Shown in pieces: positions 10,956-14,922 of a DNA stretch of 64,000 nt (the stretch's first letter is position 1; each line of letters begins with the position of its first letter). The notes under the pieces were generated by a model, which did no database searches, was not told the DNA's origin, and saw nothing but the letters and a program-made list of their open reading frames with translations. Where the stretch lies: NCBI GenBank assembly GCA_963809205.1, contig CAWEIS010000002.1, positions 50,110 to 114,109 of the forward strand, written 5' to 3'. Made by a program: the position numbers and the translations under genes. This DNA is from an uncultured Actinomycetes bacterium. Its GTDB lineage: Bacteria; Actinomycetota; Thermoleophilia; Gaiellales; JAICJC01.

Positions 10956-13900
10956 CTATGACTCGGGTGTGGTTAGGCATAGCGCGGCGAGGTCGACGCC
11001 GTAGCCGAAGGGTGGGAAGACCCGGCAGCCGAGCGTTGGTGCGAAGAACTCGCCTTGGACGGTGTTGCCGTATGGGACAACCGGGAAGCGGCTCGTCGTC
11101 AGCCGGTGGGCGAGGGCGGCGGCGGTGGACTGCCGGCTGGGTCCCTGGATCCGGTTCGTGCTGGTGACGTCGTGTCGCACCTGCGCGGGCACCCATCCTG
11201 CCGGTGAGTCGGTGATGAGTAGCTGTCGGAGCCAGCCGGCCGAGTCGGGATAGGGGAAGTCGTAGACACCGGTGTCTAGGATGTCGATCCTGGCTCCGGG
11301 CTTGGCGGCGGTGAATGGGTTGTCTTTGACGATGAGGGTCACGCGGATGCCGATCCGGCCGAGTTGCGCCTTGATCTCGTGCGCCACTTTCGAGCACGGG
11401 TCGCAGTCGTTGAATATCGCCATCACTGCGTCGAACCGCCGGCCGTTCATCAGCGTCTCGGCGCGCTGGAGATCCTGCATCGCCGAGTGTTGTGCTCGAC
11501 TCTGAACTCCCGGAAACATCGGCGGCAAGAGTTGGTCAGAGGGAGCCGCATCCCATACGGCAGCGATGGCGGTGCGATCGATGGCCAGCGCGACGGCGTG
11601 CCGGACGGTTGGGTCGGCGAACGGCTCCCGGCGCGTGTTGAGGGCGAGGGCGCCATCTCCCGGCAGTGGGACGGAGAGGTACTGATCGCGGTTGGCGGTG
11701 GTGGTCCGGTAGCGGGAGGCGATGGTGCCGCTTGGAGCGAGCAGTGGGTCGATCGGTGTTGACCCGTTGTGGCCCGAGGACACGATCCCGTTCCAGTCAC
11801 CGTGCTGAACGTGATCGACTGCGTAGCCGGCGTCCACGCCCTCGCGTAGCGCGATAGCGTCGAGCCTATGTGGCCGGGGCCCGTGGTAGTTCGGGTTTCG
11901 TTTCAGGATGATGTACTTGTCGTTGTTGTAGTCGGCGACGTAGTACGGTCCCGCTGACGGCATGTAGCCCGCGCTCACCGGCCCGGCGCCGCGAAGTGGA
12001 GCCCCTGGGACGAACGGTGTGTCGGTGGGCACCGGACAGAAGAAGGGCATGGCCAGCCGGTGCAGGAAGGTAGGCGAGGGCTGGGTCAGCGTGATCTCGA
12101 GGCGGGATCCGCTGGCGCGAAGGCCAGAGATGTTCGGTGAATGCCCGGACCGGAACGCCTGCTCGCCCTGGATGTCGTCGACGAAGTACGCGCCCGGCTG
12201 GAAGTCTCCGAGCTTCGGGGAGAGTGCCCGCTCGATCGAGTGTCGAAACGTTTCGGCGGTCAACGGCTGGTTGGTGGGCGGCGAGAAGCGGTAGCCGGGG
12301 GATATGGTGAACGTGTACACGCGCCCATCTGGCGAGACGCTTGGCATGGCAGCCGCAACCTCGGGTCGCAGCTGGAGGCCCTCGGGGGCGGGCGCATCCG
12401 GATATCGGAGCAGATTGGCGCAGGTGGCGTAATCGACTTGGAATGCTGCGGCATTCCAGTTGAGTGCAGGCTCGTCTCCCTGACCGAGCGCGCCCTGCTG
12501 GGAGAACAGCCTGACGACGTTGCGGCCAAGCGCGGCGAACCGGCCGTCGATCGTCGGTCCCGAGTCGAGCGATGCCAGCAGAGTGCCAGCGCCGGCAAAG
12601 TGTATGCCTATCGGGTGACCGAAATCTTGCATTGTCCGCTTTCCGCTGATGGCGTTGATCCCCGTCACCGTGCCCACGTCAGTGTTCGAAACCCAGAGCA
12701 CGCCGTCGCTGTAACTTAGGTTGTTTGCGCCGAGGCCGGTGTGATACGTGGCTGCGATCTGTCCGTTCTGGTCGATCTTGTAGACGACGCCTTTGGCGGG
12801 GTCGCTCGTCCATCCGAACCCTCCGCCGGTCACGACGTACTGGCTGGTCGACGTGATGCCCGCCACCGGGGTGACGGTGCTCGTGCTGAGGTCGATCAGG
12901 GAGAGCCCGCCGAAGTCGGCTGCCACAGGAGTCCGTCGGCGTAGGCGATGTCCATGTGGTGCGCGACGTCGTTGAACCGGTGTCGAAGCTTCCCGTCGTG
13001 GGATCGAATGCGACAATCTGCCCGATCCCGACATCGCGGCTGACCCACACCAACCCCTCACCGAGGGCGACCCCCTCAACTGTGCCAGAGTCGCCAACGA
13101 GCTTGTCCAGGTGAAGGCGATCGACCTCCTTACCAAGGTCGATGTCCATTCTCACGAGGTCATGACCACTTCCCGTCCAGAGCGAGTTTCCGTCGACCGC
13201 GTAGGGCTGATACGTCGTGGTGTCAGTGCTTCCGCTGGGCGGTGCGAACTGGGTCAACACCTTCCCAGAAGCGGGATCGATCTCGACGTAGGACGAGGGA
13301 GTGAAATTCATCACCCAGATGTGGCCGCCGGCGAACACTGGAAAGGCCGGTCTGGCGATCTCCGAAGGCGATATGAACCCGACCTGGTGGCGGCTCTTGA
13401 TGTCCAAAAGGACAACACCTGGCCGGAACGAGGAGGCCGTTTTGCCGCCGCCCAGCGCGACGGACAGCAGAATGGCCACTCCGGCAACGATGGCAGCGGC
13501 ACCGGCCAGGGGAACCCAGCGGCGACCCTGCGTGCGTCGCCGTAGCCGGCGGACCAGGGCATCGCCGCGCTGATGAGGAACGACCTCGACCACGCGAACG
13601 GGATGGTCGATGCCCTTCAGCCGTTCCAGGCGGCCCTGCAGGTAACGGATGCCCTCGACCTTGCGCGCCAGGTGCATGACGCCTTCCGAGGCGAGCACCT
13701 CGCCCGGCGCTGCCAGCGCGCACAGCCGCGACGCCACGTTCAGCGCACCACCGCGATAGCCCGTACCGACCGGAACCGCCTCACCTGCATCCAGCCCAAT
13801 GCCGACACCCCGTGCTAACCCGGACTCGGCCACGCACATCTGGATGTCCATCGCAGCCAGGAGTGCCGCGCGCGCCGATTCGAACACCACCAGCGCCTCG

Positions 13901-14922
13901 TCGCCACGCAACTGGATCGAACGCCCATCGTGGCGCTTGACCACGCCCTCCACCAGCGTCGCGAACTCGCGCGCCAGCTCGGCGCCCGCCTCGTCACCGC
14001 GCTCGTTGGTGTATTTCGTATAGCCGCGGATGTCGACGAACAGGAACGTCCGCACCTGCGCTTGGCGCGGCTGCGCCGTGAACTCGTTACCCCCGACCGA
14101 GGCACGGGCATCCTCGATGAAGCCGCTGCAGGTGGAGTAGCGGTCGTCAGGATTCTTCGCCAGCGCACCCTCGATCACACCATCGATGGAGGATGGCAAG
14201 TCTGGTCGCAACGCGGACAACGATGGCGGCGGCTCCTTCAAGTGGCCGAACACCGTCACCAGATCGGTCTCACGCTGAAACGGTGGCCGGCCGGTGAGAC
14301 ACTCGAACAGCACGCAGCCAAGCGCATAGACGTCGCAGCGGCCGTCCACCTCGCCGCCCTGGATCTGCTCCGGAGCGATGTAGTCGATCGTCCCGGAAAA
14401 CGCGCTGTCCCGACTCAGGCTACTGACCGTTGCCGCGTGCTTCGCCAATCCGAAATCCGACAGATACGCCCGGTCGCCCGCCAGCAGAATGTTCGCCGGC
14501 TTCACATCCCGATGCACCAACCCCTCAGCGTGCGCTGCATCCAGCGCCTCCGCGATCTGGCCCAACAGCGCAATCGCCCGCTCCGGCTCGAGCCGCCCCT
14601 CGCGCACGATCAGCTCGCGCAGATCACCGCCATCGACGAATCGCATCGCGAGATACAGCAGCCCATCCGCCTCGCCGGCTCCATAGATCGGCACGATCGC
14701 CGGATGCTCCAGCCCCGCCGCCAGCTGGGACTCACGCACGAACCGGGCCCGGAAGCGCGCATCCTGCGCCAACCCAGGCGGCAACAACTTCAACGCGACC
14801 GGCCGATTCAGGTGCTCGTCCCGAGCCAGATACACAACCCCGGCGGCCCCGCTCCCGAGCAATCGCTCGACCCGGTAACCCGCCACGCTTGTCCCAATCG
14901 GCACGTCCAGCGGCATAGGCAC
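10956..14922 (-). pseudogene. Ser/Thr protein kinase - cyclase (CHD) - TM - beta-propeller - family-5 solute-binding-protein fusion, interrupted by two 1-nt frameshifts
   Basis: ORF 12679..14922 encodes four modules:
- Kinase: GSGAAGVVYLA..HRDVKPANILL..DFGLA.
- CHD: FLFVDIRGYTKYT.
- TM segment: WVPLAGAAAIVAGVAILLSVAL.
- Propeller repeats.

Its last ~100 aa are Arg/Pro junk. ORF 10956..13136 begins as junk, then continues the propeller repeats and a peptide/nickel SBP-like domain. A third frame bridges them with KLRHRFNDVAHHMDIAYADGLLW (about 12925-12989). Confidence 0.75.

Follow-up and report, generated by a model that had tools for sequence, protein, structure and literature searches.

When a large gene is interrupted by two single-base frameshifts a short distance apart, it may be a recently inactivated gene, a recoded one, a chance arrangement of separate genes, or an intact gene that was misread during assembly; which of these applies? 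This question is raised by a locus on the minus strand, at positions 10956-14922, of a 64,000-nt stretch of contig CAWEIS010000002.1 from an uncultured Actinomycetes bacterium (the whole stretch is referred to as the window). After restoration of two missing bases, the locus comprises 1320-1322 codons and joins in one chain a Hanks-type Ser/Thr kinase, a class III cyclase homology domain, a transmembrane (TM) helix, a beta-propeller and a family-5 solute-binding protein (SBP) domain. As a whole, the evidence makes it likely that the locus is a functional single-pass receptor of an uncultured soil actinobacterium, with frameshifts that are probably consensus errors. The two frameshifts taken by themselves are likely to be assembly or consensus errors, namely homopolymer under-calls of a long-read metagenome assembly, because the siblings from the same population that cover the sites all read both with an extra base. 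Siblings are defined here as other-sample assemblies of the same population, recovered through an identical receptor protein or via exact neighbouring proteins.

One gene in three reading frames

The reading frames were checked by a listing of open reading frames (ORFs) and by three-frame translation of positions 12800-13160. Three ORFs, occupying three different minus-strand frames, share the locus. ORF A (12679-14922, 747 aa) makes sense up to IVAFDPTTG (GIGQIVAFDPTTG) and then turns into Arg/Pro/Thr-rich junk, ORF B (12896-13048, 50 aa) carries the peptide KLRHRFNDVAHHMDIAYADGLLW, and ORF C (10956-13136, 726 aa) makes sense from (A)ADFGGLSLIDL onwards (AADFGGLSLIDLSTSTVTP) and reaches the stop codon of the receptor gene at 10956-10958. 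Counted from the GTG start at 14922, the repaired product has 1322 aa; a start at the ATG of 14916 would give 1320 aa. Both frame switches go in the same direction, with one base missing at each (net -2), and therefore do not compensate each other.

Both lesions were placed by DNA alignment to near-identical sibling contigs. The first lies at 12992-12994 on the minus strand, where the plus strand has a C-run 3 bases long and the gene strand reads ACGGGAAG; it moves translation from frame A to frame B after DPTTG. Siblings have either a 4-base run (GGGGAAG) or GGGAAAG at this site, and the gene-strand change is GGGG to GGG, i.e. ACGACGGG[G]AAGCTT. The second lesion, at 12923-12924 on the minus strand (CC on the plus strand, CTGTGGCAG on the gene strand), moves translation from frame B to frame C before AADFGG. 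The plus strand of the siblings has CCC here (CTGTGGGCAG), corresponding to a gene-strand change of GGG to GG, i.e. CTGTGG[G]CAGCC. The two sites are both short G-runs inside the propeller region and are 69 nt apart; the middle-frame stretch between them (12923-12991, minus strand) consists of 23 codons reading KLRHRFNDVAHHMDIAYADGLLW.

Gene callers split the locus, as seen in the fragment calls P0121 (656 aa) and P0122 (702 aa), and the three ORFs could on these grounds be separate genes that overlap by chance, one for a kinase-cyclase membrane protein and another for a secreted propeller-SBP protein. This is contradicted by the 23-codon peptide of the middle frame, the reading of which is conserved in all 36 aligned homologues (DPxTGKvxxRF...YGDGxLWxAD) and completes one propeller blade. 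It is also contradicted by more than 100 single-ORF homologues of about 1300 aa, colinear with 99-100% of the repaired protein, and by the fact that a separate C-terminal fragment would have no signal peptide or TM helix. The full-length homologues and the conserved middle-frame peptide refute the idea of separate genes, leaving it a negligible probability, and for the same reasons the receptor locus is a single ancestral gene.

Another way to read the locus is to regard the gene as functional exactly as written, its expression depending either on a pair of programmed +1 ribosomal frameshifts or on slippage of transcription within the G-runs. Homopolymers can indeed give transcriptional slippage, and both sites are short G-runs. 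However, these runs are only 2-3 nt long, and neither lesion site has a slippery heptamer or a stimulatory context. Moreover, the sibling alleles and the homologues are single-frame, so that the requirement for recoding would be unique to one assembly. The in-frame siblings effectively refute this mechanism, which is exceedingly improbable.

Sibling assemblies, private lesions and a deletion polymorphism

Further frameshifts in the window were sought with frame plots of GC content at third codon positions (GC3) and with a scan for overlapping ORFs. Both approaches were too unspecific at 69% GC, with adjacent genes and spurious ORFs dominating the output, and direct comparison with the sibling assemblies was therefore used instead. 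An intact 1320-aa gene is present in three of these assemblies: contig_57371 (L087), contig_6491 (391 kb, also available from NCBI) and contig_35193, the latter two corresponding to L095 and L096. The protein P0001, encoded by contig_57371 of ENA assembly ERZ25039585 (L001/L087), is intact, has 1320 aa and is 100% identical to the repaired product. Over 10 kb, the window differs from L095 and L096 by exactly two gaps, both of which are the lesion sites, and within the gene it differs from each by one single nucleotide polymorphism (SNP). All six siblings that cover the two sites have the extra base at both (6/6), and the lesions are thus private to the window; substitutions that at first seemed private as well are shared polymorphisms. 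A first reading made from the letters alone (the sequence-only reading) had proposed one protein of about 1320 aa across three frames, two 1-nt losses at these places and the lack of a slippery heptamer, and each of these proposals is borne out by the repaired product, the sibling alignments and the inspection of the sites.

The surroundings of site 1 differ between assemblies in more than one way. Two siblings have other indels 6-10 nt from site 1: in L097, CCC is shortened to CC in GATCCCACG, which splits its gene into 558 and 560 aa, and in L089 two nucleotides of this run are missing. Three different lesions therefore fall within 11 nt across three assemblies (the window, L097 and L089), and this clustering is the signature of a technical error hot spot, not of inheritance. 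In addition, two synonymous haplotypes exist at site 1, GGGGAAG (G4A2) and GGGAAAG (G3A3). The state of the window, GGGAAG (G3A2), has the shorter run of each and looks like a blend of two co-occurring haplotypes. The haplotype of L089 diverges most from the window at 12939-13165, a region adjoining the lesions, with 17 mismatches in 226 nt. The frameshifts would thus have arisen as homopolymer under-calls in an error-prone, haplotype-mixed stretch. As a side observation, GATC and AAGCTT palindromes flank the indel hot spot at 12984-13002, and methylation might, speculatively, explain recurrent Nanopore miscalls there.

Inconsistent gene breaks also occur in other genes of the sibling set. One sibling, contig_57371, breaks a LipJ-like gene and the C-terminus of an SQR-like gene and is an outlier at four indel sites. 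The genes for RelA/SpoT, a MoxR-type AAA protein, a DUF58 protein and RecJ are intact in contig_25997 and split differently in contig_57371 and contig_81393 (these siblings are L082-L084); RelA, MoxR and other genes are split differently between L083 and L084. Window positions 48100-64000 align to contig_25997 with 20 mismatches and no gaps. Among homologous loci of species-representative genomes, frame switches were found in 9 of 49 loci from metagenome-assembled genomes (MAGs) with contig_N-type, Flye-style names, compared with 1 of 31 loci from short-read MAGs, a contrast that is only suggestive (Fisher p = 0.08). The MFD MAGs in the homologue list are Nanopore-only, produced by Flye assembly and one Medaka round (PMC12313526), and the window appears to derive from a Nanopore/Flye-type assembly.

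The same population also carries a true loss of the gene. A 6.5-kb polymorphic segment (8037-14572) is missing from siblings L085 and L086, which come from two other samples and each align to the window as two blocks abutting at 8036/14573. This deletion takes the LipJ-like hydrolase-cyclase gene, a gene for a 281-aa protein and the receptor gene beyond codon ~117. Its junction, which joins kinase codon ~117 to sequence near 8036, shows a few bases of microhomology and leaves a 154-aa fusion ORF. Both L090 and L097, which belong to one sample, end at the breakpoint (14571/14572), which implies that the gene is covered by reads of more than one population type and that coverage would be mixed. 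The 6.5-kb deletion is a genuine structural variant, and its natural occurrence means that the receptor is not essential.

Such dispensability bears on the remaining alternative, in which the gene is a genuine, very recent pseudogene that acquired one frameshift by homopolymer slippage and then a second, neutral one nearby, in a lineage losing the locus. The deposited sequence does contain both lesions, and the gene call of the source record appears to be P0121, the C-terminal fragment. Several observations favour such decay and weigh against consensus errors. Real loss of the receptor gene occurs in the population through the deletion found in two samples, the flanks of the window are nearest to the deletion-type strain (99.98%), and a frameshift at 20214 in the SQR-like gene is common to the window and this strain, which makes a decaying lineage conceivable. 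Furthermore, no other private indel was found in about 23 kb of flanks (14573-21897 and 48100-64000) checked against at least two siblings, and the 5.4-kb left flank has no gap relative to its single comparator, L086. The consensus of the window is therefore otherwise clean, and two errors 69 nt apart would be exceptional for this assembly.

Against decay, only one SNP separates the gene from intact alleles, so that the pseudogene would require two independent indels within 69 nt in almost no evolutionary time. Either lesion is found in none of the six siblings (0/6), the different indels of other assemblies in the same 11 nt form a pattern typical of a technical hot spot, and the G3A2 state looks like a mixture of haplotypes. 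Further signs of decay, sought as excess substitutions and lost conserved residues, were not found in the gene, which has one SNP relative to L095/L096 and keeps all of its catalytic residues. The sequence-only reading had offered a recent pseudogene or two local assembly errors as the possible causes; this was the right pair, and the sibling evidence favours errors as the probable cause and renders the pseudogene unlikely.

The SQR-like gene of this comparison is a Pyr_redox_2 gene (19359-20688, minus strand), the frame of which is broken in the window by one additional C, GTACGT[C]GAGCTC, at site 20214. It is intact in L085 and L089, where it encodes 442 aa with an N-terminal GGGVGA motif for flavin adenine dinucleotide (FAD). 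The lesion is common to the window and L086 only and is lacking in five other siblings; it reflects either true loss of the gene's function in this strain or a systematic error that both assemblies have in common.

The case illustrates how the consensus of a long-read metagenome can take on the look of a double-hit pseudogene through two under-called homopolymers, and how comparison among assemblies of one population can settle such cases without recourse to reads. Taken alone, the frameshifts are probably of little interest; the gene family to which the receptor belongs is not trivial.

Modules of the repaired receptor

The N-terminal module is a Hanks-type Ser/Thr kinase domain (14131-14877, minus strand; aa 16-264), predicted to be cytoplasmic. 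In the repaired protein, it is matched by Pfam family PF00069 (Pkinase) at 163.4 bits, far above the cut-off of 31.7 (E 9e-48). The catalytic set is complete, comprising the LGSGAAG loop, VALK, the alphaC Glu (RESQ), HRDVKPAN, DFG and APE, and residues K43, E62, H135, R136, D137, N142, D154, F155 and G156 are unchanged in the alignment of 36 full-length homologues. Judged by these motifs, the kinase is active-looking and catalytically complete. The model for PknB/Stk1 PASTA kinases (NF033483) matches the kinase domain only, with 295.7 bits against a cut-off of 450, and no PASTA hits were obtained.

Between the kinase and the membrane lies the class III cyclase homology domain (13531-14055, minus strand; aa ~290-464), which is predicted to be cytoplasmic and juxtamembrane and was recognised with phmmer and a family profile. 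With 13.0 bits (E 0.077), the domain falls short of the 21.9 bits demanded by Pfam PF00211, a threshold that a family member at L066 passes with 34.4 bits. Solved structures provide stronger matches: a single-sequence phmmer search against PDB found Rv1900c/LipJ (1ybt, 5e-16) and Ma1120 (~1e-13), and the family profile A2 found Ma1120 (4wp9, 1.4e-21) together with Rv1264, CyaB, Cya2 and CyaC. The NCBIfam LipJ model also matches the cyclase part at 1.7e-13. By these similarities, the domain clearly belongs to the class III cyclase homology domains, though as a divergent member.

The residues of the cyclase domain, given in P0001 numbering, were located through alignment with Ma1120 and the published numbering of its K101, D157, A164 and A167 (PMC4215837). 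The metal-binding D295/D339 and the transition-state N393/R397 are present, and each recurs in 30 of the 30-31 family sequences in which the domain occurs. At the purine-specifying positions, this protein has Q335/G386, and 28 of 31 family members have Glu/Gly; the canonical adenine-specifying Lys/Asp pair is absent from both the protein of the window and the consensus of the family. Ser/Ala is found here where Cya2 has an activity-enhancing Tyr. In adenylyl cyclases the pair is retained as Lys/Asp, and a Glu in first place marks guanylyl cyclases; Glu-Gly is exactly what the bacterial guanylyl cyclase Cya2 carries, and among the engineered Ma1120 mutants K101E/D157G was the most active as a guanylyl cyclase (PMC4215837). 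Neither Gln/Gly nor Glu/Gly allows a confident prediction of whether the substrate is ATP, GTP or both. Two points weigh against a receptor-driven cyclase output: the domain is N-terminal of the TM helix, ~20 residues away from it, with no recognisable transducer helix in front, and it could be mainly or only a dimerisation module.

The TM helix, WVPLAGAAAIVAGVAILLSVALGG (13447-13518, minus strand; aa 469-492), was read from the sequence and is preceded by RRLRRRTQGRR. Because of this Arg-rich stretch, the positive-inside rule points to an N-in/C-out topology, with the kinase and cyclase domains inside the cell and the rest of the protein outside. The first part of the putative ectodomain is a beta-propeller (12525-13428, minus strand; aa ~499-800), in which an unchanging Trp recurs every ~43 aa. 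An AlphaFold2 model of aa 497-812, me7a842eabc29, built from a 20-sequence alignment, has a pLDDT of 91.5, a pTM of 0.89 and 29 strands. In a Foldseek comparison with PDB, this model matched YncE (3vgz/7seu, TM-score 0.66), a YVTN protein (1l0q), BamB and WD40 proteins, with E ~1e-11. As modelled, the repeat region is a 7-bladed beta-propeller, an all-beta toroid with blades of four strands.

The propeller is followed by the SBP family-5 domain of cluster C, the peptide/nickel type (11241-12371, minus strand; aa 852-1228). Pfam family PF00496 (SBP_bac_5), the cut-off of which is 32.4 bits, matches it with 135.7 bits (E 2.8e-39) in an alignment that spans profile positions 2-353 out of 368, and the peptide SBP 8upi is matched in PDB at 3.8e-25. 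The C-terminal tail behind this domain contains two Cys residues, C1298 and C1314, that are invariant in the 36-homologue alignment. Across 50 receptor loci, no neighbour family is conserved in more than 5, and there is no ABC permease partner. Since the domain is fused to a TM anchor and no partner gene is conserved, it presumably acts as a sensor and not as a component of an importer.

The sequence-only reading had listed these five modules in the same order, and Pfam, the PDB matches, the AlphaFold2 model and the reading of the sequence agree with it. Profile searches of the repaired protein, which it had suggested, placed Pkinase and SBP_bac_5 above threshold and recovered the cyclase via solved structures. 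The class III cyclase domain that it had named is present, with the qualification that the purine-specifying positions are non-canonical (Gln/Gly here, Glu/Gly in the family).

Taken together, the modules suggest a possible signalling route. The sensor outside the cell would consist of the 7-bladed propeller and the family-5 solute-binding domain, and the outputs inside the cell of the Hanks kinase and the juxtamembrane cyclase homology domain. A ligand, by analogy peptide-like, may bind the ectodomain at the SBP domain or the propeller and thereby alter the dimerisation or orientation of the receptor. In class III cyclases the active sites arise where two subunits meet in the dimer, and dimerisation followed by trans-autophosphorylation switches on Hanks receptor kinases. 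Because cyclase and kinase both need dimers, one input could drive both outputs, and a change in dimer geometry would gate protein phosphorylation and cyclic-nucleotide synthesis together.

The receptor family, its surroundings and known systems

Protein searches found more than 100 proteins of ~1290-1330 aa that are colinear over 99-100% of the repaired query, at 41-75% identity. Their labels in the source databases include class 3 adenylate cyclase, ABC-type oligopeptide substrate-binding subunit, Ser/Thr kinase and streptogramin lyase. A scan of species-representative genomes for the motif RNP[NH]YxG[PDS]RP, with confirmation by tblastn, yielded 269 loci. Among the 80 of these that were listed, all belong to uncultured Actinomycetota MAGs except for one labelled Candidatus Dormiibacterota; the labels include Gaiellales, Solirubrobacterales and Thermoleophilia, the family being mostly Thermoleophilia, and several genomes have two copies of the receptor. 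The best match in a representative genome is 66-68% identical, and the species of the window is therefore not among the representative genomes. The receptor is thus a member of a common but uncharacterised family in soil Thermoleophilia. Intact orthologues with the same domain order, for which the sequence-only reading had proposed a search, are accordingly numerous. Its description of the architecture as unusual is an overstatement as far as sequence space is concerned, given the full-length homologues and the 269 loci. In the literature searched, the architecture does appear to be uncharacterised: a limited search of open-access text found no published description of a kinase-cyclase-propeller-SBP5 receptor.

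The propeller and SBP5 ectodomain is also found behind other heads. These include a SARP-type head of Trans_reg_C and BTAD domains, a cyclase domain alone, a kinase-only head (~1145 aa) and a kinase plus SARP head (~1400-1590 aa). From these domain combinations, the ectodomain appears to behave as a portable sensor cassette. A broader proposal can be built on this. It would hold that there is a widespread Thermoleophilia family of inverted, N-in receptors in which the propeller and SBP5 domain, as a portable cassette, control an active Hanks kinase and a Glu-Gly cyclase making cyclic guanosine monophosphate (cGMP) or a mixture of cyclic nucleoside monophosphates, and that this family is an independently arisen functional analogue of animal receptor guanylyl cyclases. 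In its entirety, this proposal is speculative and rather doubtful.

Bacterial cGMP signalling is rare and poorly understood, and the stimuli of bacterial Hanks kinases are a long-standing question. One-chain receptors in which an ectodomain of the solute-binding type is linked with a Ser/Thr kinase and with a cyclase bearing guanylyl-cyclase-like specificity residues are encoded by hundreds of soil Actinomycetota genomes. The SBP5 sensor belongs to a ligand-tractable class and would make both the cGMP question and the kinase-stimulus question testable. In addition, the pairing of one type of ectodomain with different heads (SARP, cyclase or kinase) amounts to a clean natural experiment in receptor wiring.

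The neighbourhood of the receptor gene is unusually rich in cyclases, with three further class III cyclase genes within 26 kb. One encodes a 1336-aa cyclase, AAA_16 and TPR protein with two matched cyclase stretches (343-4353, minus strand), another the LipJ-like alpha/beta-hydrolase-cyclase of 440 aa (8287-9609, plus strand), and the third a 1018-aa cyclase-AAA_16 protein (23352-26408, minus strand). Within the cyclase part of the LipJ-like gene, positions 9179-9525 hold 11-13 of the 15-17 mismatches found over 10 kb relative to L095/L096, and this SNP hot spot suggests a recombination tract or a diversified patch. The gene at 10009-10854 (minus strand) encodes a 281-aa Ala/Gly/Pro-rich protein with internal repeats (..PTRANPSEAAAA..), a hydrophobic C-terminal tail and no Pfam hit. 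Over 10008-10731, L088 shows ~90 mismatches and many indels, being extremely divergent or noisy, and L095 and L096 are identical to the window. The intergenic stretch 9666-9891 (within 9606-10000) has several multi-base indels between assemblies.

By architecture, the closest known system is PknD of M. tuberculosis, which is likewise actinobacterial. PknD, too, begins with a Hanks kinase in the cytoplasm, crosses the membrane once and displays a propeller outside the cell; this propeller is of the 6-bladed NHL type, and PknD has no other module. In contrast, the propeller of the receptor has 7 blades, resembles YncE/YVTN and is followed by the SBP5 domain, and a cyclase homology domain stands between kinase and membrane. 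The NCBIfam PknD model matches the kinase part only, at 131.8 bits against a cut-off of 839. The combination of a bacterial kinase and a class III cyclase in one polypeptide is shared with the TOMM kinase/cyclase fusion (TIGR03903). Members of that family are cytosolic, carry AAA/TPR modules and have no TM helix or ectodomain, and the TIGR03903 model, the cut-off of which is 705.75 bits, reaches 135.6 bits on the kinase part of the receptor only. The receptor is a member of neither this family nor the PASTA kinases.

The closest solved relatives of the cyclase domain are Ma1120 and Rv1900c (LipJ). Like Rv1900c, the cyclase domain of the receptor has no canonical substrate Lys. The Glu-Gly pair of the family is the same as in Cya2 and in Ma1120 K101E/D157G, whereas the protein of the window has Gln at the first position. 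Unlike the receptor, Ma1120, Rv1900c and Cya2 are soluble or hydrolase-fused enzymes.

By module set, the closest systems are the animal receptor guanylyl cyclases, such as GC-A/NPR-A and GC-C, which likewise combine kinase-type and class III cyclase domains with a TM helix and a periplasmic-binding-protein (PBP)-like ectodomain on one single-pass chain. A Glu in first place of the specificity pair, as in the receptor family, is the guanylyl-cyclase state (PMC4215837). The order of modules is inverted in the receptor, which runs from kinase through cyclase and TM helix to ectodomain and would be N-in/C-out. Its kinase has all catalytic motifs, whereas the animal proteins have a pseudokinase; its ectodomain consists of a propeller and a cluster-C SBP domain, whereas theirs has a type I PBP fold. 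Also unlike the animal proteins, the receptor has no coiled-coil or transducer element before the cyclase. Common descent of the two kinds of fusion is not implied.

By logic, the closest system is GlnH-GlnX-PknG of mycobacteria, where an SBP acts in trans as the sensor of a Ser/Thr kinase (PMC6069109). Both arrangements use an extracytoplasmic SBP as the sensor of an actinobacterial Ser/Thr kinase pathway. In GlnH-GlnX-PknG, this task is divided among three proteins, with a family-3 type SBP and a soluble kinase, whereas in the receptor described here a family-5 SBP domain is fused with the kinase in one chain.

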